Source of the DNA: Candidatus Saccharimonadota bacterium
GTDB taxonomy: Bacteria; Bacteroidota; Bacteroidia; Cytophagales; Amoebophilaceae
NCBI RefSeq assembly: GCF_964030745.1
Contig: NZ_OZ034918.1
Span: forward strand, 630,001 to 662,000
DNA: 32,000 bases
Direction of reading: 5' to 3'
The stretch's first letter is position 1; each line of letters begins with the position of its first letter. Position numbers and translations under genes: made by a program. The notes beneath the pieces were generated by a model that did not search any database, was not told the origin of the DNA, and saw only the letters and a list, made by a program, of their open reading frames with translations. Below are positions 9,355 through 20,606 of this stretch, in pieces.

Positions 9355-9646
9355 TGGCTATTCCCGGGTATCCATTCATCACTATGGCTACGTTTTTCTG
9401 AAAAAGTAAATGGCTGACCAATTAACAGCCCCGCGTCTCCTTCGATAAAAAATGGCGCTCTAGTAAAACGCTAACACCTGAGCGATATGTTTTTTCAGCG
9501 GATTAGAAAATCGTTTGTTTGAAGCCCGCTTGCGGGCTGAGTTCACGATTTTCCCGCTGAAAAACATATCGATTCAGCTATTTACTATCGGGCCAGACTT
9601 TTTATCGAAGGAGATAAGTGGACCAGCCACAGGCGTGAATAGATAC
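9355..9646. repeat. Composite repeat cluster 1: T(rev) + L + P1-A + flank + T(fwd)
   Basis: Matches modules found again at 14331-15240 and 30026-30423. T motifs lie at 9368-9387 (reverse) and 9627-9646 (forward). Confidence 0.85.
9437..9613 (+). repeat. P1 palindromic element, copy A (about 177 bp)
   Basis: Terminal inverted repeats are CTCCTTCGATAAAAA...TTTTTATCGAAGGAG. The centre is GAAGCCCGCTTGCGGGCT. The two arms are imperfectly complementary over about 85 nt. Copy C differs from it at about 7 positions by eye. Confidence 0.9.
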
Positions 9647-10535: not shown

Positions 10536-11582
10536 ATGAAGTTATCCAATTTTAAGTTTGAGCTACCAGCGAGCAGCATTGCACAATATCCGATAGAGGA
10601 AAAGGAAGATGCGCGTTTAATGGTTGTACATAAAGATAGTGGCAAAATAGAGCATAAAACCTTTAAAGACCTTCCTGCTTATTTTAGTGAAGGGGATACT
10701 TTAGTGGTCAACGATTCTAAGGTATTGCCTTGTAAGCTTTATGGCTGTAAAGAAAAAACAAATGCACAAGTAGAAGTGCTTTTATTGCGGAAATTGAACG
10801 ATGAGCATGGCTTATGGGATACTATTGTCGAGCCAGCACGTAAAATCCGTATAGGGAATAAAATTTACTTTGGAGATGGCGAGTTGGTAGCTGAAATTAT
10901 AGACAATACGACTTCCAGGGGTCGCACCCTTAAATTGTTGTTTGACAGGACAGAAGAGGAATTTTATGCACTGATTAATGAAATTGGTCATATGCCTTTA
11001 CCCCATCAGATAGGGCGCCCATCCAAAGCGGAAGACCGGGAATACTATCAGACCATATTTGCGCAAAACATAGGTAGTATTGTGTTACCAGCTGCTGGGC
11101 TCCACTTTACCCCTTATTTGTTGAAGTATTTAGCCTTGCAGAACATTTCGGTTGTACCGATTACGCTCCATATTGGTTTGGGTGAACTCAGTATCATTGA
11201 TATGGAAGACTTAACCAAGGTAAGGGCTTCCTCTGAACGTTTTGTGATTACCAAGGAAGCTACACAAGTAGTCAATCAGAGCTTGCATCATCATAAAAAA
11301 GTTTGTGCTGTAGGCACTTCAGTGTTAAGGGCTATGGAATCTTCTGTTTCCGTTTCTTGCCAACTCAAAGAAGCCAGTGACTGGACTAATAAATTTATTT
11401 TACCTTCTTATACTTTTAAAGTTTGCAATGCATTATTGACCACATTTCATCTTCCTTCTTCTATTTCTTTAGTCAGCGTAGCTGCTTTTGGAGGAGAGGA
11501 GTTGATCTTAACTGCTTATGCCGAAGCTATAAAAGAAGGGTATCGGTTTTTCTTGTATGGCGACTCTATGTTGATTATATAA
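10536..11582 (+). CDS. queA: S-adenosylmethionine:tRNA ribosyltransferase-isomerase
   Basis: 348 aa. N-terminus MKLSNFKFELPASSIAQYP...R(E/D)DARLMV, plus ...LVVNDSKVLP..., ...GHMPLP..., AAGLHFT, AVGTSVLRAMES and YRFFLYGDSMLI, all typical of QueA. Confidence 0.95.
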   Translation: MKLSNFKFELPASSIAQYPIEEKEDARLMVVHKDSGKIEHKTFKDLPAYFSEGDTLVVNDSKVLPCKLYGCKEKTNAQVEVLLLRKLNDEHGLWDTIVEPARKIRIGNKIYFGDGELVAEIIDNTTSRGRTLKLLFDRTEEEFYALINEIGHMPLPHQIGRPSKAEDREYYQTIFAQNIGSIVLPAAGLHFTPYLLKYLALQNISVVPITLHIGLGELSIIDMEDLTKVRASSERFVITKEATQVVNQSLHHHKKVCAVGTSVLRAMESSVSVSCQLKEASDWTNKFILPSYTFKVCNALLTTFHLPSSISLVSVAAFGGEELILTAYAEAIKEGYRFFLYGDSMLII

Positions 11583-11641
11583 ATGGCAATATGTTGGAAG
11601 GGATCTCAAGCAGCCGATCAAGTTATAAGTTTATTCTATTT

Positions 11642-14278
11642 ATGATGATAATGGTAGATACAAATATCAAAAAAGTTAAGCGTTGGTTATGCCTCTTCTG
11701 TTTATGTATAGGATGGGCACAGCCTATCTTTGGTGCAACGGGTTATACTGTACGCAACATTCAGGTAGTGGGTAATGCGTGGGTAGCTTCTGACCGGTTG
11801 ATTGCGCTTTCTGGTTTGCAAGAAGGCGCAATGGTTGATCCATCAACTGGACAAATTCGTAATGCTATTTTAAAAATAGCCAAACAGGAGGGTGTTAAAT
11901 CTGCTTCCATTTATCTGTCTGAGGTTGACCAAGCAAATGGTTTAGCCACTTTTGTTATTCATGTAGAGGAATATCCCCGACTAACCAGCTATCTTTTAGA
12001 AGGTTTAACTAAAAAAGAGCAAAAAATGCTGCTTGAAAAAGTCACCATAGGTGATTGTGTGGCGCTATCTCCGATTTTTCTTCAAAAAACTACTGATAAG
12101 ATTAAAAACATATTTCTAGAGAAAGGGTTTAGAGAGGTAGAGGTTGCTACAGAGTTGATGCCAAGTCAGAAAATGGATCATCAAGCTGCTTTAAAGATTA
12201 AGGTCAATAAAGGGCAAAAAAGCAGGGTGCAGAAAATTATTTTTGAGGGGAATGACCATTTAGATGCTGATTGCTTGATATATCATATGAAAGAATTGCA
12301 AGAAGCGCCTCATTGTACACTTTTCCAGGATATTTTTAAGAAAATCATTACGCTTGCACCCATCCGAAAAGGTGGTATTCTGTTGCAGTTGCCTAAAAAG
12401 ATGGATGATATCAAACAGTATCTTTGTAGCCATGTTTCTTTTTTCTCATCTGTTTTTACAGAAGAAAAATACTTAAAAGCCAAAGAGAACTTAATGCTTT
12501 TTTATCGATCACAAGGGTTTCGAGATGCATATATTGCAGCAGAGCGTTTGCAACCATCTACCGATGGAAAGCTGGATATTTATTTAAAGATTAATGAGGG
12601 GAAACCATACATGATTCGCCATGTTAAATGGGTTGGCAATTATCTCTATAGTGACGAAACACTCAATAGGTTGTTAAACTTGCAGGAAGGAAAAATATAT
12701 GACCCTTGCTATATTAAAAGTCGATTGAGTCCTGGGATTACAGATGTAACGATTAGTGATTTGTATACCAATAATGGGTATCTTTTTTTCCGAGCTGAAG
12801 TTGTTGAGTCTAGTATAGAAGATAATCAGATAGATCTAGAAATTAGAATCCAAGAGGGGAAGCAGGCTACTATTCGTCAAATAGATATTGTAGGCAATAC
12901 TTTGACCCATGATTATGTTATTCGTCGTGCACTACTCACATTACCTGGGGAGCAATATAACCAAGGTCTTGTACGAGAGTCTTTACGAAACTTAGCCATG
13001 TTAAACTTATTTAAGCCGGAAAAATTAATCCCAGATATACACCCAGATGAATCTAAAGGGCAAGTAGATATTATTTATTCGGTAGAGGAGCAACCTCGGT
13101 TCGATCTTAAGCTTAATGCCCATTATAGCAATGGGATTGTAGCTGGGATTGAGCTTGGCTCTAATAATGTTTCTTTAAAAAACTTATTTTCAGGTAAAAT
13201 GCCTATAGGAGCTGCTCAGGAATTGCACTTATCAGCTGAACTGAGTGGTAAGCATTATAAAAATTTTAGTTTCTCTTTTCAAGAACCTTGGTTCTGGTTG
13301 CAGGAAAATCATTATATATTTTCCGTAAGCTTCAATAGTGCCTATCAACAAGCATCTTATACGAGAAAGAGTGTATTAGATGACTGGGTCTTCTTAAACA
13401 TATTCCCAATCTGGAAACAAAATAGAAAAGGTAAAATTTGCTCAATAGGTGGTCGAGTAAGTTTGGGGAAGCATATTGCTAGATATTGGGAGGTTCATTT
13501 GGGCATAGATTACCACCACCATACTTACCAATACTATGAGCTATTAGCAGATCATAGTAAAAGGTCTGGGGGCTTGCATGATCTTACTTTAGACGTTGCA
13601 TTGAATTATTCTAGTATCAATAATCCAAATTACCCTACTAGTGGAGCTTCTTGGTCTAATTTTTTAACCTTGACACCTCCCTATACTTTGTGTGGTTATC
13701 TACCTTCGGTAGCAACAGCCATACCACGTTTTAAGGAGTTTGGAAAGTTTATAACAGATGTATATTATTTTAAACGTTTGGTAGGTAATTGTGTTTTACA
13801 TTTTCGTGGCCATGCTGGATTTTTACATAGTCTGTCTAAACATGAAATAGGCCCTTTTGAGCGATTTTATCTAGGTGGAACATCAAATATTCCCACTAAA
13901 CTATTAGGTGTTAATTTTGTTTCGTTGCGTGGTTATCCAGATGACAGCCTTACGCCAGAAGATTACGCTAAAAAGATAAAAGGGGGCGTTTTATTTAATA
14001 AGTTTGTTTCAGAGTTGCGTTATCCACTTATGCTTGCACCTATTTGTTGCTATCTATTGGGATTTGTAGAGGTAGGAGATAGTTGGCTGCACTATGACCA
14101 TTTCAACCTATCTAATTTAAAAAAATCTATAGGTGGTGGTGTGCGTATTATTTTGCCTATTCCTATTATACCTATGCTTGGGCTTGACTTTGCCTATAGA
14201 TTGGATCCTGTAAAAGAGATCCGTAGTGCTAAAAGTTCTTTTGAATGTCATTTCACCCTTGGGCCTAGTATGCGCTAG
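11642..14278 (+). CDS. bamA: Outer membrane protein assembly factor BamA
   Basis: Track ORF 11423..14278. The 5' part overlaps the queA 3' end and begins at TTG. In-frame ATGs at 11591 and 11642 precede a signal peptide (KKVKRWLCLFCLCIGWAQPIFG). POTRA-like repeats follow (RNIQVVGN..., IIFEGNDHL, VKWVGNYLYSDETL, IDIVGNTLTHDYVIRR), then a C-terminal Omp85 barrel (FYLGG..., LRGY..., GGGVRI). Confidence 0.9.
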   Translation: MMIMVDTNIKKVKRWLCLFCLCIGWAQPIFGATGYTVRNIQVVGNAWVASDRLIALSGLQEGAMVDPSTGQIRNAILKIAKQEGVKSASIYLSEVDQANGLATFVIHVEEYPRLTSYLLEGLTKKEQKMLLEKVTIGDCVALSPIFLQKTTDKIKNIFLEKGFREVEVATELMPSQKMDHQAALKIKVNKGQKSRVQKIIFEGNDHLDADCLIYHMKELQEAPHCTLFQDIFKKIITLAPIRKGGILLQLPKKMDDIKQYLCSHVSFFSSVFTEEKYLKAKENLMLFYRSQGFRDAYIAAERLQPSTDGKLDIYLKINEGKPYMIRHVKWVGNYLYSDETLNRLLNLQEGKIYDPCYIKSRLSPGITDVTISDLYTNNGYLFFRAEVVESSIEDNQIDLEIRIQEGKQATIRQIDIVGNTLTHDYVIRRALLTLPGEQYNQGLVRESLRNLAMLNLFKPEKLIPDIHPDESKGQVDIIYSVEEQPRFDLKLNAHYSNGIVAGIELGSNNVSLKNLFSGKMPIGAAQELHLSAELSGKHYKNFSFSFQEPWFWLQENHYIFSVSFNSAYQQASYTRKSVLDDWVFLNIFPIWKQNRKGKICSIGGRVSLGKHIARYWEVHLGIDYHHHTYQYYELLADHSKRSGGLHDLTLDVALNYSSINNPNYPTSGASWSNFLTLTPPYTLCGYLPSVATAIPRFKEFGKFITDVYYFKRLVGNCVLHFRGHAGFLHSLSKHEIGPFERFYLGGTSNIPTKLLGVNFVSLRGYPDDSLTPEDYAKKIKGGVLFNKFVSELRYPLMLAPICCYLLGFVEVGDSWLHYDHFNLSNLKKSIGGGVRIILPIPIIPMLGLDFAYRLDPVKEIRSAKSSFECHFTLGPSMR

Positions 14279-14358
14279 GAGAGGGGGGAGATTATAACTA
14301 TTCGATACCTATATTATATGCAATCAAATGGCTGGCCGCCTGTGGCTGGTCCCCTTAT

Positions 14359-14525
14359 CTCCTTCGATAAAAAGTCTGGCCCGATAGTAAATAGCTGCAT
14401 CGATATCTTTTTCAGCGGGAAAATCGTGAACTCAGCCCGCTTCGCGTGCTTCACACAGACGATTTTCTAATCCGCTGAAAAAGATATCGCTCAGGTGTTC
14501 GTGTTTTACTAGAGCGCCATTTTTT
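14359..14525 (-). repeat. P1 palindromic element, copy B (reverse orientation; one terminus truncated, centre diverged)
   Basis: Begins CTCCTTCGATAAAAAGTCTGGCCCGATAGTAAATAGCTG..., which is the reverse complement of the right arm of copy A. It ends ...TAGAGCGCCATTTTTT without the ATCGAAGGAG terminus and abuts a reverse T motif (14526-14545). Confidence 0.85.
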
Positions 14526-14563
14526 GTATCTATTCACGTCACTGGTTAATAATGAATTGTATT

Positions 14564-14589
14564 CCACTTTTTTCTTGATAAAAAAGTGG
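14564..14589. repeat. Module H hairpin (10-bp stem CCACTTTTTT/AAAAAAGTGG, 6-nt loop)
   Basis: Perfect inverted repeat, read directly. The same module in reverse lies at 20533-20558, with identical flanks (GAATTGTATT / ACAAAAAATCAAG). Confidence 0.85.
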
Positions 14590-14602
14590 ACAAAAAATCA
14601 AG

Positions 14603-14738
14603 CCCTCGGTAAAAAGTTGGGGACCTCATCCCTTACAGATGGAAAAACAGAAGTCGCCCGCTGCGCGGGCTTCAAAGGAATCTGTTTTTCCTAATCATCT
14701 GCAAGGGATGAGGCCTATTTCCCCACTTTTTACAGGGG
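14603..14738 (+). repeat. P2 palindromic element, copy 1 (about 136 bp)
   Basis: CCCTCGGTAAAAAGTTGG...CAGAAGTCGCCCGCTGCGCGGGCTTCAAAGG...CCACTTTTTACAGGGG. The arms are complementary with a few bulges. The central stem is GCCCGC-TGC-GCGGGC. Confidence 0.9.
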
Positions 14739-14825
14739 CATTTTTCTACTATGGACATAGCGTTAAACGCATACGCTACGTTTGGCTGAAAAAGCAAGTG
14801 GCTAGTCCATTACCAGCCCCCGCGT

Positions 14826-15002
14826 CTCCTTCGATAAAAAAATGGCGCTCTAGTAAAACACTAACACCTGAGCGATATCTTTTTCAGCGGATTAGAAAAT
14901 CGTCTGTTTGAAGCCCGCTTGCGGGCTGAGTTCACGATTTTCCCGCTGAAAAATGTATCGATTCAGCTATTTACTATCGGGCCAGACTTTTTATCGAAGG
15001 AG
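14826..15002 (+). repeat. P1 palindromic element, copy C
   Basis: Full-length with both termini (CTCCTTCGATAAAAAAA ... TTTTTATCGAAGGAG). It is preceded by module L (14775-14825) and followed by ATAAGGCGGCCAGCCAGAGG plus T (15016-15035). Confidence 0.9.
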
Positions 15003-15044
15003 ATAAGGCGGCCAGCCAGAGGCGTGAATGGATACAAAATCAAG

Positions 15045-15180
15045 CCCTCGGTAAAAAGTTCCGGAACCCACCCCTTGCAGATGAAAAAACAGAAGTCGCC
15101 CGCTGCGCGGGCTTCAAAGGAATCTGTTTTTCCTAATCATCTGCAAGGGGTGGGTTCTATTTCGAAACTTTTTACAGGGG
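15045..15180 (+). repeat. P2 palindromic element, copy 2
   Basis: Same termini and centre as copy 1. It contains a perfect 20-bp stem, GAACCCACCCCTTGCAGATG / CATCTGCAAGGGGTGGGTTC. A T motif (15197-15216) and a P1 terminal fragment (15216-15235) follow. Confidence 0.9.
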
Positions 15181-15425
15181 CATTTTATCACTATGGCCAT
15201 AGTGTTGAACAGATACCATTTTTTTATCGAAGGAGATAAGGGGCTGATAATGATCAGAAAAGCTATTGTGGCCGCCGATAAAGGAATGCGGCGCTTCAGT
15301 AAAGCGGAAGTCTTTAAACAATCTATTTTCAGGGAAGAAAAGTAAGCAAAAAATCTCCAAAAAATGCAGTCCATTATACCTGTAAACACCAGAAACAAGG
15401 AATCCACACTATATAGCCTTCAAGT

Positions 15426-17169: not shown

Positions 17170-18729
17170 TTATTGCTTAGCATGAGGGGTGCTACCCAAT
17201 TGAACTGCCAAATAACCAATAGTCCCTTTACTAGGTTCCATAACCTGCATCAAAACAGGTTCTCTAGTACGTCGAATCATTTCAGCTAAATCAGCTATGC
17301 TAGCAACAGGTTGCTTATCAAAAGCAAGTAAAATATAACCTTTTTTAAGGCCAGCATCCTGAAACTTTCCTTTGGAAACTTCCTGAACCAGCACTCCGTT
17401 AGTAAGCTTTAGCTTTGCTTTTGTTTTCTTATCAATATTTTGAAATACAGCACCTTCCACCTTCAGGATATCATCTTGTTGTACAATCTGTATCACATCA
17501 GGCTGCTTTTTCAATACTATTTCTATTGTTTTTACTTTACCTTTGCGGTATAATGTAATGGCTACCTTGTCACCTGGCTTAGCACAACAGATTATTTCTT
17601 GTAAATCTGGACATTTATTAACTTTTCGGCCATTGATTTGGGTAATCACATCTTCTTTTTGGAATTCCTTCCCACAAGGACTATTGTCTTGCACGCCATC
17701 GACATAGACACCGCTAATTGCTTGTAAGCCCAATTTCTGAGCCAATGCAGCATCAACATCTCGAATGGTTATACCCAATAATACCCGCTGTATAGCACCA
17801 TGTTGAATGAAATCATTGGCTACCTTTTTTACTATAGATGAAGGAATGGCAAAGCCATATCCTATAAATGTCAATGAAGAGGATCTTCCAGGACAAATAG
17901 CTGTATTAATGCCTACCAATTCTCCATATAAATTGACCAACGCGCCACCACTATTACCTGGATTAATGGCTGCATCAGTTTGAATAAAAGATTGAATCCC
18001 TAATTGCCCGTTACCAACATGATCTAGCCATCTAGATTTAGCACTTACAATTCCTTTGGTAACAGTAGAGTGGAGGTTAAAGGGGTTTCCAACTGCTAAA
18101 ACCCACTCACCTACTTCTAGTTTATCTGAACTGCCTAACGCCAAAACAGGTAGGTCAGATGCTTCAATTTTTAAAATTGCCAAATCAGTGCAGGCATCTG
18201 ACCCAACTAGTTTTGCCTTATAAGATCGATTATCATTTAAGATGACCTCTATCTGATCAGCACCCTCCACCACATGGTTATTGGTAATAATATAGCCATT
18301 GCTGGTGTAAATAACCCCAGAACCATAAGAATCTTCAGGAGGCCGTTCAGATGTTTTAGGCACCAACAATCTTTCTCCAAAAAATTCTTTAAAAAACTGC
18401 TCTAGAGGGTGGTTCGACCCCTGTTTGAGCAACTTAGGATTTTTATATATCTTTACATGCACTACTGCTCGTGTAGCCACTTTAGCTGCATAGGTAAAGT
18501 CGGGCAAGGCTGTGGGCAAAGGCTTATCCTCTGGTGCTACGATGGTTTGTTCCAGCGGTTTATGCTGCTCCACAGTAGCAACCTGCTGTAGAGCGCCAAC
18601 AGCTGTTAGGTTGCTGTTGTTACCCCGTGAATAAGGACCCACAAACCATAAACATAAGCCAAATGCAGCTACAATAACCGTATTAAACAGCTTTTTACAT
18701 ATACCCTGTTTACTAAATTGTTCGTACAT
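17170..18729 (-). CDS. htrA: Do/DegP/HtrA family periplasmic serine endoprotease with two PDZ domains
   Basis: 519 aa. Trypsin-like triad context: ITNNHVV (His), TDLAILKI (Asp), GNSGGALVN (Ser). Two PDZ-like segments follow. Confidence 0.9.
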   Translation of the reverse strand: MYEQFSKQGICKKLFNTVIVAAFGLCLWFVGPYSRGNNSNLTAVGALQQVATVEQHKPLEQTIVAPEDKPLPTALPDFTYAAKVATRAVVHVKIYKNPKLLKQGSNHPLEQFFKEFFGERLLVPKTSERPPEDSYGSGVIYTSNGYIITNNHVVEGADQIEVILNDNRSYKAKLVGSDACTDLAILKIEASDLPVLALGSSDKLEVGEWVLAVGNPFNLHSTVTKGIVSAKSRWLDHVGNGQLGIQSFIQTDAAINPGNSGGALVNLYGELVGINTAICPGRSSSLTFIGYGFAIPSSIVKKVANDFIQHGAIQRVLLGITIRDVDAALAQKLGLQAISGVYVDGVQDNSPCGKEFQKEDVITQINGRKVNKCPDLQEIICCAKPGDKVAITLYRKGKVKTIEIVLKKQPDVIQIVQQDDILKVEGAVFQNIDKKTKAKLKLTNGVLVQEVSKGKFQDAGLKKGYILLAFDKQPVASIADLAEMIRRTREPVLMQVMEPSKGTIGYLAVQLGSTPHAKQ

Positions 18730-18867: not shown

Positions 18868-20373
18868 ATGCATCAAATATTACGGATCTACAACAGCTTA
18901 ACCAGACAAAAAGAGGTATTTGAGCCACTTAGGCCGCCTTTTGTGGGCATCTATTTATGTGGCCCTACGGTTTATGGAAAGGCTCATCTAGGCCATGCAC
19001 GTGCAGCTATTACCTTTGATATCCTCTTTCGTTATTTACAACATCTGAACTATACCGTGCGTTATGTGCGCAACATTACAGATGTAGGCCATTTGGAACG
19101 AGACTTGGATGATGGTAAGGACAAAATAGCGCAACAGGCCAAGCTGGAGGAAATAAGCCCTATGGAGGTAGCACAACGTTACACCAATAGCTATCGGAAA
19201 AATATGGAAGTACTGAATGTATTACCTCCTAGCATTGAGCCCTGTGCAAGCGGACATATTCTAGAGCAAATTGCCATGATTGAAAAGATTCTTGAATATG
19301 GTTTGGCGTATATAATAGATGGGTCTGTCTATTTTGACGTAGCCAAATACAATCAAATGCATCATTATGGCAAGCTGTCTGGCAGGAGCATAGAAACCAC
19401 TCGTTCGGGCACACGTTCATTGACCAAACAAACCGATAAAAAACAACCGGAAGATTTTGCCTTATGGAAAAAGGCAACCCCTATGCATATCATGCGTTGG
19501 CCTTCTCCCTGGGGAGAAGGTTTTCCTGGTTGGCATATTGAGTGCTCTGCAATGGCTACAAAATATCTAGGCAATCAGTTTGACATACACGGGGGGGGAA
19601 TGGATTTGCTTTTTCCCCACCATGAATGTGAAATTGCACAGGCACAAGCTGCAGTACAAACAAATTTAGCTACTTATTGGATGCATAATAATTTGGTTAC
19701 GATTGATGGGGTAAAAATGGGTAAATCATTGGGTAATTTTATTACACTAGACGCACTGTTTTCAGGAGACCATCCTGCCCTAGATCAGCCCTATAGTCCT
19801 ATGACATTGCGGTTTTTTATGCTACAGGCCCATTATAGAAGCACCCTTTCTATTACCATAGAGGGGTTAAAAGCAGCCCATCAGGGCTATCGTAAGCTAA
19901 TGAATGGTCTCCATCTCTTGGCTAAGCTTCATCAAGAAACGGTAGCCACAACAAGCGGAAGGTTAGATGAAGCCATTTATGCAGATTGCACAGCTTGTTA
20001 CAGTGCTATAAATGACGATTTCAATACGGCAAAAGTTTTAGCCCATTTATTTAATTTGCTCAAAAAAATAAATGGATGGCACAATGGCACACTGGAGCAT
20101 GACTCCATTTCAAAAGCTGCATTGGATCAATTGCGCACTACTTATACTACCTTTACGGTAGCGCTATTAGGTCTAAAAGAGGAGCATCAACTCACTACTG
20201 ATCAAATGGTAGCAACATTTCTAAAAATTTACCAAGAGGCCAAAGCAGAGAAGCGGTACGATCAAATTGATTACATACGTACTGCACTCCATAAAATGGG
20301 TATTGCGATCAAAGACCATTCCAGTGGTGTGCGATGGGAATACCAGTGTAAGCATTCAACACTATGTCCATAG
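18868..20373 (+). CDS. cysS: Cysteine--tRNA ligase
   Basis: 501 aa. It has the class I HIGH motif (HLGHAR), KMSKS motif (KMGKS) and zinc-binding Cys/His context (CGPTVYG, HIECS, HHECE). The last 8 codons or so and the stop lie inside repeat cluster 3. Confidence 0.95.
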   Translation: MHQILRIYNSLTRQKEVFEPLRPPFVGIYLCGPTVYGKAHLGHARAAITFDILFRYLQHLNYTVRYVRNITDVGHLERDLDDGKDKIAQQAKLEEISPMEVAQRYTNSYRKNMEVLNVLPPSIEPCASGHILEQIAMIEKILEYGLAYIIDGSVYFDVAKYNQMHHYGKLSGRSIETTRSGTRSLTKQTDKKQPEDFALWKKATPMHIMRWPSPWGEGFPGWHIECSAMATKYLGNQFDIHGGGMDLLFPHHECEIAQAQAAVQTNLATYWMHNNLVTIDGVKMGKSLGNFITLDALFSGDHPALDQPYSPMTLRFFMLQAHYRSTLSITIEGLKAAHQGYRKLMNGLHLLAKLHQETVATTSGRLDEAIYADCTACYSAINDDFNTAKVLAHLFNLLKKINGWHNGTLEHDSISKAALDQLRTTYTTFTVALLGLKEEHQLTTDQMVATFLKIYQEAKAEKRYDQIDYIRTALHKMGIAIKDHSSGVRWEYQCKHSTLCP

Positions 20374-20596
20374 TAGTAAAATGCCCCTGTAAAAAGTTGG
20401 GAAATAGGCCTCACTCCTTACAGATGATTAGGAAAAACAGATTCCTTTAAAGCCCGCTTAGCGGGCGATTTCTGTTTTTCTATCTGTAAGGAGTGAGGTC
20501 CTCAACTTTTTACCGAGGGCTTGATTTTTTGTCCACTTTTTTATCAAGAAAAAAGTGGAATACAATTCATTATTAACCAGTGACGTGAACAGACAC
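20348..20596. repeat. Composite repeat cluster 3: T(rev) + P2-3(rev) + H(rev) + T(fwd). It occupies the entire convergent cysS/E2 spacer.
   Basis: Reverse-complement match to 14527-14774. The P2 core is 20384-20519, the H hairpin is 20533-20558, and T motifs lie at 20348-20367 and 20577-20596. Confidence 0.9.
20384..20519 (-). repeat. P2 palindromic element, copy 3 (reverse orientation)
   Basis: CCCCTGTAAAAAGTTGGGAAATAGGCCTCACTCCTTACAGATG...AAGCCCGCTTAGCGGGCG...ATCTGTAAGGAGTGAGGTCCTCAACTTTTTACCGAGGG. Confidence 0.9.
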
Positions 20597-20606
20597 ATAC
20601 CAGTAG

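Follow-up and report, generated by a model that had tools for sequence, protein, structure and literature searches.

A MITE family of Cardinium endosymbionts with compensatory substitutions between the arms of a long internal hairpin

Results

P2 hairpins form the interior of elements with terminal inverted repeats

The DNA analysed here is a 32-kb stretch (hereafter the window) from the Cardinium endosymbiont of the beetle Philonthus spinipes. The assignment is based on QueA, which is identical to WP_342264988.1, an entry in a protein cluster attributed to this endosymbiont. It represents housekeeping chromosome, with uvrA, two lspA genes, a tsaC-like gene, queA, bamA, murG, lptC, htrA, cysS, sucB, mgtE and secDF, and it carries three copies of a palindromic repeat, P2, and four of a sister element, P1. 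The initial annotation had described P2 as a palindrome; the palindrome is real, but the enclosing MITE, with terminal inverted repeats (TIRs) and 8-bp target duplications, had been overlooked. Comparison of the flanks across many copies revealed that the P2 hairpin is the interior of an element of ~249 bp rather than a free-standing repeat. The element reads, in order, left TIR (GTATCTGTTCAnGnCAnTGG, ~20 bp), spacer, small A/T hairpin (CCACTTTTTT-CTTGAT-AAAAAAGTGG), A-run, large hairpin, variable tail and right TIR (...CCAnTGnnnTGAACAGATAC), and its termini are inverted repeats of the form GTATCTGTTCA... The TIR motif is found at the ends of both P2 and P1, and the same TIRs delimit the copies in cBcalN2, cSfur, cBtQ1 and on a plasmid. 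In the window, the motif occurs 17 times, compared with 7.7 +/- 2.9 expected occurrences.

Copy 1 of P2 is a complete MITE of 249 bp on the forward strand (14526-14774), delineated by an inverted repeat, the TIR motif, the predicted fold and the alignment. Its left TIR lies at 14526-14545, the small A/T hairpin at 14563-14590, the large hairpin, annotated earlier as 14603-14738, at 14602-14739 (forward strand) and the right TIR at approximately 14754-14774. There is no target-site duplication (TSD) at this copy, both flanks of which consist of P1 sequence. Copy 2 (15036-15216, forward strand) is a truncated MITE with neither a left TIR nor a small hairpin. It begins immediately past the right TIR of one of the P1 elements (P1b) and retains the large hairpin (approximately 15044-15181, with a perfect stem of 21 bp) and the right TIR (15196-15216). 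Copy 3, again complete and 249 bp long, is located on the reverse strand (20348-20596), where it is inserted at the 3' end of cysS; its right TIR is at 20348-20368, the large hairpin at 20383-20520, the small hairpin at 20532-20559 and the left TIR at 20577-20596. This copy is bracketed by an 8-bp TSD, ATACCAGT, of which the first copy (20340-20347) is within cysS and the second occupies 20597-20604. Copies 1 and 3 share 253 bp, forming an inverted repeat (14525-14777 and 20345-20597) with 92% identity. No further full copy of P2 was found in the 32-kb window, although a 32-nt fragment of the P2 5' arm lies at 30063-30094.

One of the P1 elements, P1a, is 279 bp long (9368-9646, forward strand) and is flanked by ATTCCCGG and ATTCCCAA, which match at 6 of 8 positions. 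P1d (14337-14525, reverse strand) is a partial, inverted P1 that abuts the left end of P2 copy 1, and P1b (14775-15035, forward strand; right TIR at 15015-15035) lacks a left TIR of its own and is located between P2 copies 1 and 2. The segment 14337-15216 is a mosaic of the form P1 (inverted, partial)-P2-P1-P2, in which adjoining units share one terminal repeat; this head-to-tail arrangement is the only trait reminiscent of BIMEs. The fourth P1 region, P1c (30098-30423, forward strand), is preceded by the P2 5'-arm fragment and has rearranged ends, with two right-TIR motifs (30362-30372 and 30413-30423). The TIRs of P1 are those of P2, and P1 also shares the apical GCCCGC..GCGGGC hairpin of P2, albeit in the opposite orientation. 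A third, short family with the same ends is present in cBcalN2. Given that P1 and the short element carry the ends of P2, the three can be grouped into a superfamily.

Insertion sites and the search for a parent element

P2 is an ordinary MITE, a non-autonomous DNA transposon: it is small and non-coding, has TIRs and target duplications, is present in multiple copies and is polymorphic for insertion. The duplications are identical at all 8 positions in copy 3 (ACTGGTAT in the orientation of the element), in copy L017 of cBcalN2 (GTTTTTTA) and in the plasmid copy L001 (CAAACTGA), and are absent at nested or rearranged copies, namely, copy 1 of the window, L018 and cSfur_c.

Insertion polymorphism is best seen at cysS (18868-20373, forward strand), the last 8 codons of which, together with the stop codon (CKHSTLCP*), are MITE sequence. 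The window carries the insertion, whereas the site is empty in all four other Cardinium genomes examined, those of the endosymbionts of Nabis limbatus, Sogatella furcifera, Dermatophagoides farinae (DF) and Encarsia (cEper1), in which the cysS neighbourhoods were reached via CysRS homologs. The CysRS encoded in the window is 501 aa long, has an identical 501-aa entry among its database homologs and ends in ...RWEYQCKHSTLCP*, compared with 495-496 aa for the orthologs, which end in ...WEYQ*, ...WEYLT*, ...WAYQ* and ...WAYK*. When the MITE and one copy of the TSD are deleted in silico, the protein of the window ends in ...RWEYQ*, as in cSfur. Similarly, a single ATTCCC in the corresponding intergenic region of cSfur suggests that the P1a site is empty in that genome.

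Three open reading frames (14639-14911, 14919-15239 and 15114-15407) overlap the elements and cross their borders. No transposase domain was detected in the 20 other window ORFs that were scanned, and the neighbouring loci contain no transposase either. Likewise, no parent insertion sequence (IS) with the TIRs of the MITEs was found in the window, in the 17 cBcalN2 and cBtQ1 loci, in the four orthologous loci of 21 kb, or on plasmids CP101109 and pCher. Parentage by an IS6 element, which the 8-bp duplication had suggested, was rejected because the ends of the IS6 element of pCher, GGYTCTGTCGCATCTGTA, differ from the TIR of the MITE; they have only the TCTGT core in common with GTATCTGTTCAC. 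Another candidate, GGCGTCAACTTAAGG, considered as an IS231-like end, proved to be internal sequence beside the left TIR of the third, short family.

Relatives of P2 in other Cardinium genomes

Genomes, one per species, were scanned with the conserved core AAACAGAANNNGCCCGCN{2,6}CGGGCTT. In Candidatus Cardinium sp. cBcalN2, 17 loci gave 19 occurrences of the core, and cBtQ1 gave a single one; approximately 30 of the 48 loci returned by the genome scan were chance matches in unrelated bacteria and were discarded. Six matches to the core in metagenomes were also discarded, all being GC-hairpin terminators or coding sequence and none a relative of P2. In cSfur, three P2-related copies are located within 21 kb, one of them downstream of bamA, where it is oppositely oriented and set in another context. 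The plasmid collection yielded a single relative, on Cardinium plasmid CP101109, a mobilisable-looking replicon encoding a relaxase and a TraM-recognition protein; no P2 relative was found on pCher. Identity between the relatives in cBcalN2, cBtQ1 and cSfur and the window copies ranges from 75 to 84%. We found no orthologous P2 insertion in another strain, and the insertion at cysS is private to the strain of the window. The cBcalN2 genome is available as a fragmented draft, and its contigs end within the element. Two of its copies, L014a and L033, appear to combine a left half from one subfamily with the abundant right half, and their arm mismatches may stem from chimeric assemblies.

Paired substitutions among the three copies of the window

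For the comparison of the window copies, the segments 14585-14780 (forward), 15027-15222 (forward) and 20342-20537 (reverse) were aligned, which was unproblematic at a mean column identity of 93%. Each copy folds into a single long, slightly imperfect hairpin of ~140 nt capped by a small GC-rich stem-loop. The predicted energies of the three copies are -74 to -83.5 kcal/mol for RNA (z of -9.2 to -12.1, on either strand) and -46.5 to -52.1 kcal/mol for DNA (z of -10.7 to -12.7). The most perfect stem is that of copy 2, in which 39 of 40 pairs are Watson-Crick.

Within the stem, a variable box reads TCATCCC/GGGATGA in copy 1 (14626-14632 and 14705-14711, forward strand), CCACCCC/GGGGTGG in copy 2 (15068-15074 and 15147-15153, forward strand) and TCACTCC/GGAGTGA in copy 3 (20411-20417 and 20490-20496). 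The adjoining stem of copy 1 contains an A.C mismatch, where copies 2 and 3 are paired as CTTGCAG/CTGCAAG and CTTACAG/CTGTAAG, respectively. All P2 coordinates and strings given in the initial annotation are correct to the base upon re-reading in the window, and its estimate of about five covarying pairs among the three copies is borne out by the full-element alignment, in which five pairs carry changes on both sides: 99/188 (C-G<->A-T), 101/186 (T-A<->C-G), 104/183 (T-A<->C-G), 105/182 (C-G<->T-A) and 110/177 (G-C<->A-T, with copy 1 providing the A.C intermediate). In addition, copy 2 has a differently paired CCGG/TCGA in place of the outer GGGG/CCCC segment. Even among the window copies alone, both partners of a pair are hit more often than expected by chance. 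Between copies 1 and 2, 22 of 181 positions differ and 6 pairs are hit on both sides, a count matched by none of 20,000 random placements of the differences. By permutation, the number of pairs hit on both sides has P = 0.018 for copies 2 and 3, and P = 0.066 for copies 1 and 3, where two pairs are hit and complementarity is not yet demanded.

Covariation and uneven conservation across 20 copies

When 17 copies were aligned with MAFFT in an unbiased manner, two-sided changes were seen at 13 of 40 pairs, compared with 5.6 +/- 1.4 in column shuffles (0/500 shuffles reached the observed value). The larger set comprised 20 copies from four genomes and a plasmid, to which the genome of the window contributed only three, and 51 pairs, including those of the small hairpin. 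Two kinds of controls, neither of them tree-aware, were applied to this set: column shuffles, which ignore relatedness, and slid partners, which keep relatedness. Paired cells made up 94.4% of the stem (86.3 +/- 0.6% in column shuffles; 39-58% with partners slid), 19 of the 51 pairs were changed on both sides (11.0 +/- 1.6, 0/500; 3-9 when slid), and the number of cells changed on both sides was 79 (22.9 +/- 4.0, 0/500; 4-18 when slid). All five covariation measures exceeded every shuffle, and up to four different Watson-Crick pair types were found at a single position. Covariation is not confined to the large hairpin but extends to the small hairpin and to the apical stem, and P1 displays G-C<->C-G exchanges.

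Conservation along the element is uneven. In the outer and inner stems, the entropy per column is 0.25-0.36 bits, compared with 0.9-1.0 bits in the box and the tail. Near-invariant blocks include the outer stem, the inner stem CTTACAG(C/A)TGGAAAAACAG, the apical stem, CTGTTTTTC and TTTTACA(A)GGGGC. The mid-stem box of ~10 nt is as variable as the tail, and pairing is nonetheless kept: it differs in nearly every copy (TCATCCC, CCACCCC, TCACTCC, TCGCCCC, GCAGCCC, GCACAGC, GCTCGGC), and most copies carry its complement on the opposite arm. Asymmetric bulges and two G.T pairs are retained in 18 of the 20 copies from the four genomes and the plasmid. By contrast with these conserved parts, the intergenic DNA around the copies does not visibly align between strains, which, together with the uneven conservation, argues for purifying selection on much of the element. 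Conservation across strains could also partly reflect recent horizontal spread, one copy being on a plasmid.

Mispairing, loop inversions and the level of the process

Excluding the two consensus G.T pairs, the sporadic mismatches comprise 13 A.C, 7 G.T and 25 others. Thus, G.U is not in excess on either strand, whereas an excess would be expected if an RNA of one polarity were under selection. Furthermore, the double changes are mostly transversions (A-T<->C-G, G-C<->T-A, C-G<->G-C), for which there is no route through a G.U wobble intermediate. Two rearrangements of the loops were also recognized. In copy L018, the whole apical segment of ~55 nt, bounded by GAAAAACAG and CTGTTTTTC, is inverted with respect to the arms, and an additional AAATAG in the left arm mirrors the bulge of the right arm; in L009, inversion has turned the 6-nt loop of the small hairpin from CTTGAT into ATCAAG. 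These inversions show that the arms do undergo templated events at the level of DNA, and, taken together, the lack of a wobble excess, the transversions and the two inverted loops point to a process at the DNA level.

The mismatches are also informative with respect to the pace of this process. In the box, the same C.C and C.A mismatches stand uncorrected in all three cSfur copies, which implies that imperfect hairpins were propagated, and the close cBcalN2 relatives L038 and L018 differ by uncompensated changes, so that correction is evidently not fast.

A search of the window against Rfam 15, a check that the initial annotation had recommended, produced no match at the gathering score; at a relaxed threshold, there were only two chance matches to miRNA hairpins (E > 0.5). 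Promoter and terminator scans returned a borderline terminator-like call at the apical stem only.

Discussion

Probable selection on the hairpin and copying between its arms

The initial annotation had offered two alternatives, selection on the hairpin and copying of one arm from the other, neither being expected of inert DNA. Both find support: the former in the covariation of 20 copies above the controls, the conserved blocks, the bulges and the G.T pairs, and the latter in the loop inversions of L018 and L009. Bulges and sequence blocks that are conserved across strains point to a constraint on the element itself. However, frequent template switching should wipe out conserved bulges, and hence selection and switching must be balanced. 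Because the elements have TIRs and 8-bp duplications, selection most plausibly acts on propagation of the element rather than on a function for the host.

On balance, we favour the view that P2 is a structure-constrained MITE, the compensations in which are supplied by template switching within the hairpin. Under this scenario, the shape of the hairpin, including the conserved bulges and the two G.T pairs, would be needed for propagation of the element, possibly because extruded or single-stranded hairpin DNA is recognised by a putative transposase or a host factor, and lineages losing the pairing would leave no daughters. The paired changes, in turn, would arise by template switching during replication (quasi-palindrome correction), whereby a mutation in one arm is copied to its partner, rather than from two independent point mutations via G.U intermediates. 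The part of the fold in propagation is a conjecture, and we know of no internal hairpin requirement in transposons with TIRs and target duplications. A bolder version, which we regard as quite unlikely, holds that P2, in spite of its TIRs and 8-bp TSD, would transpose only by way of the folded long hairpin, complete with the conserved bulges and G.T pairs, be it an extruded cruciform, single-stranded DNA or RNA. If true, this would represent a structure-dependent mode of transposition, undescribed for such elements and driven by a putative Cardinium transposase.

Several other readings of the same data have to be weighed against the structure-constrained MITE. That the paired differences are due to chance or to shared ancestry among a few related copies could be entertained for the three window copies, given the marginal comparison of copies 1 and 3 (P = 0.066) and shuffles that ignore relatedness. 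This reading is effectively refuted by the count for copies 1 and 2, unreached in 20,000 permutations, by the 20-copy set, in which all five measures beat every shuffle and the slid controls give 4-18 cells versus 79, and by positions with up to four Watson-Crick pair types, leaving it with a negligible probability. A more serious contender is neutral concerted evolution only, with a functionless hairpin, the arms of which are kept complementary in place by template switching or short-patch conversion, so that the paired substitutions would be a by-product of mutation. The loop inversions, the transversion-type double changes without wobble bias and adjacent multi-base compensations, such as TCATCCC to TCACTCC, are all consistent with it, as is copy 2, which is immobile without a left TIR and yet has the most perfect stem. 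Selection should, moreover, be weak in an endosymbiont with a small population. The mechanism itself is documented (PMC8794818). Nevertheless, unrestricted copying between the arms should symmetrise the asymmetric bulges and the two G.T pairs, which are nevertheless kept in 18 of 20 copies across strains, the degree of conservation varies strongly along the element (0.25 versus 1.0 bits), and correction is slow, judging from the shared cSfur and private L038 mismatches; we therefore consider neutral conversion on its own to be rather unlikely.

A function at the level of host RNA, with the hairpin transcribed along with the neighbouring genes, maintained by selection on that RNA and acting to terminate transcription, to stabilise mRNA as a 3' structure or as a small RNA, appears improbable to us, although the window copies are all located at gene 3' ends, mostly between convergent genes. 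The apical GCCCGC..GCGGGC stem is followed by GAYTTCTGTTTTT and has a terminator-like score on one strand, and is compatible with a terminator effect; the two G.T pairs are conserved in the orientation from left to right TIR, and the compensatory changes of bcr1, a mobile repeat discussed below, have been interpreted at the RNA level (PMC3184786). Against such a function, G.U is not in excess on that strand (7 G.T versus 13 A.C), the covariation consists mostly of transversions, an inverted loop is tolerated in L018, some cBcalN2 copies lie upstream of genes or between divergent genes, and there is no match to an Rfam family. Furthermore, the insertions are lineage-specific, so that any role for the host would be secondary.

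Finally, P2 might belong to a known class of structured single-strand sites, such as integron attC sites, REP/BIME sequences mobilised by RAYT or palindrome elements of the IS200/IS605 type. attC sites and the hairpins of HUH transposases combine a conserved structure and extrahelical bases with a freely varying paired segment, a pattern that P2 resembles. However, P2 copies have TIRs and 8-bp target duplications, which, to our knowledge, none of the three systems produces; the genes between the copies are housekeeping genes rather than cassettes, no integrase or HUH gene is present in the window, and the hairpin of ~140 nt is far longer than a REP unit, which measures 20-40 nt. We accordingly see very little room for this assignment.

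Significance of the P1/P2 superfamily

P1, P2 and the short form constitute an apparently unreported superfamily of MITEs that is common to several Cardinium strains and is also plasmid-borne, and a single insertion of P2 rewrites the C-terminus of an essential enzyme, CysRS. For genome annotation, the elements matter in that they interrupt assemblies made from short reads and give rise to spurious ORFs. The main interest of P2 is as a clean natural data set on the co-evolution of hairpin arms. It is a compact one, bearing on the open question of whether compensatory substitutions result from selection on two mutations or from a single template switch. Many independently inserted copies can, in principle, be ordered on a tree, and the family could allow arm-to-arm template switching to be counted directly on dozens of dated insertions.

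Comparison with known systems

Integron attC sites are free in sequence, keep their fold and conserve unpaired bases, and P2 is like them in that one respect. Unlike attC sites, P2 has neither R'/R'' cores (no RYYYAAC ... GTTRRRY was found at the base of the P2 hairpin) nor an integrase or cassette context, its neighbours being bamA, murG, cysS and sucB, and it does have TIRs and target duplications. Identity with REP/BIME elements was likewise rejected, given the hairpin of ~140 nt in a 249-bp unit with TIRs and 8-bp duplications, and the window contains no RAYT-like gene.

Rickettsia palindromic elements, the Correia/NEMIS repeats of Neisseria and the enterobacterial ERIC can alter coding ends. 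They are repeats of 100-170 bp that fold end to end into long hairpins and are found at gene ends (see also PMC3184786), but differ from P2 in their hosts, sequences, termini and duplications.

Two MITEs, and no others, have been described in Cardinium: MITECca01 and MITECca02 of strain cOegib, which are derived from an IS982-family element and reported to be missing from all other strains (PMC9769881). MITECca01, which originates from ISCca4 (IS982 family), is ~240 bp long and mostly intergenic, and was absent from all other sequenced Cardinium strains in the blastn searches of the authors (PMC9769881). In size and mostly intergenic location, MITECca01 is similar to P2, whereas the P2/P1 superfamily is present in at least five strains or replicons. 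The occurrence of P2 relatives in several strains suggests, indirectly, that P2 and MITECca01/02 are different elements. P2 elements are not described in the cBtQ1 genome paper or in the 2025 paper on the Cardinium of Tyrophagus putrescentiae.

In a template switch, a single replication event copies one half of a stem from its partner and thereby generates instantaneous multi-base compensations and, occasionally, an inverted loop (PMC8794818, PMC5453318). Both loop inversion and multi-base compensation are recognised footprints of such switches, as described by Monttinen and Loytynoja (PMC8794818), and both are seen in P2. The published work (PMC8794818, PMC5453318) concerns rRNA and microRNA genes, whereas P2 is a dispersed transposon family, in which switch events were deduced by comparison of copies rather than by ancestral reconstruction.

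The closest precedent is bcr1 of the Bacillus cereus group, a non-autonomous mobile repeat of ~155 bp flanked by short direct repeats, the distribution of which is not conserved between related strains and in which compensatory changes maintain the double-stranded structure (PMC3184786). According to the initial annotation, a match to an already characterised family would remove the novelty of P2. We found no published description of the P2 family, so that the family itself stands as new to the literature that we searched; the phenomenon, however, is known from a few families of bacterial repeats, with bcr1 as the case on record, and compensatory change among copies of a small mobile repeat is therefore not a new kind of system. 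P2 and bcr1 share mobility and compensatory changes among copies, but no sequence relationship. The repeats of bcr1, a Firmicutes element, adopt a cruciform-like fold of two stems between 5-bp direct repeats, and their covariation was interpreted in terms of RNA. In P2, by contrast, the duplications measure 8 bp, the fold is one long hairpin topped by an apical GC stem, the wobble signal is not strand-specific, and loop inversions occur.

Rearranged hairpins in other Cardinium strains

Two P2 copies of Cardinium cBcalN2 differ from the remainder of the family in the orientation of a hairpin segment. At locus L018 (91-299), the large hairpin has its apical ~55 nt inverted with respect to the arms, and AAATAG, the mirror of the right-arm bulge, has been added to the left arm. 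At locus L009 (3966-4184), the inversion affects the small left hairpin: its loop is reverse-complemented, reading ATCAAG instead of CTTGAT, and the stem is retained. In Cardinium cSfur, a full P2 copy downstream of bamA is adjoined by a deletion derivative (L059, about 17930-18000), from which the hairpin interior is missing between two TTACAG repeats, the outcome to be expected if replication slipped across a palindrome.

A short family and a plasmid-borne copy

The cBcalN2 strain also carries a third, short (~130-bp) family that shares the terminal repeats of the other families and has the internal motif ATGGCGTCAACTTAAGG; its copies are located at L009 (about 263-400), L014 (about 2705-2830), L046 (2835-2870) and L026 (1650-1681). 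Outside cBcalN2, relics of this family were found in the Nabis limbatus strain (L058, 21146) and in cEper1 (L061, 19547). Furthermore, a P2-type copy resides on plasmid CP101109 of Cardinium DF (L001/L056, 17647-17868), where the 8-bp target duplication, CAAACTGA, is perfect. Genes for a relaxase and for a TraM-recognition protein are present on the plasmid, which is a possible vehicle for the transfer of P2 between strains.

Genes of the window

The stop codon of cysS (18868-20373) has been replaced through a MITE insertion, the MITE-derived end spanning 20348-20373. The encoded CysRS is 501 aa long, compared with 495-496 aa in all orthologs, and its C-terminal CKHSTLCP* is MITE sequence. The mechanical bamA ORF (11423-14278) covers 951 aa from a TTG start and overlaps queA by 160 nt; because the gene is called from a later start on the Logan contig (895 aa), the start of the long ORF is probably not real. 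Two adjacent lspA genes for signal peptidase II (5846-6457 and 6471-7055) form a diverged tandem duplication with 72-77% identity (repeat families D3/D4). Another ORF (28962-29900), encoding a 312-aa protein without a Pfam match, contains a tandem repeat (29195-29391) in which two identical 81-nt units are followed by the beginning of another, and which translates into 27-residue repeats.

A further unit and a mosaic array

Beyond this ORF, an additional ~150-bp unit (within 29910-30094) has TIR-like motifs at its ends, GGATCCGTTCATGACTGTGG and GCCATAGCCGTGAACGGGTAT, and is followed by a 32-nt piece of the P2 5' arm (GCCCTCGGAAAAAAGTTGTGGCCCCACTCCTT) joined to P1c, the P1 copy with rearranged ends. 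The bamA-murG intergenic region is occupied by a four-element mosaic (14337-15216), consisting of an inverted, partial P1 followed by P2, P1 and P2, in which one terminal repeat is common to both neighbours at each junction. The arrangement of this P1/P2 array is BIME-like.
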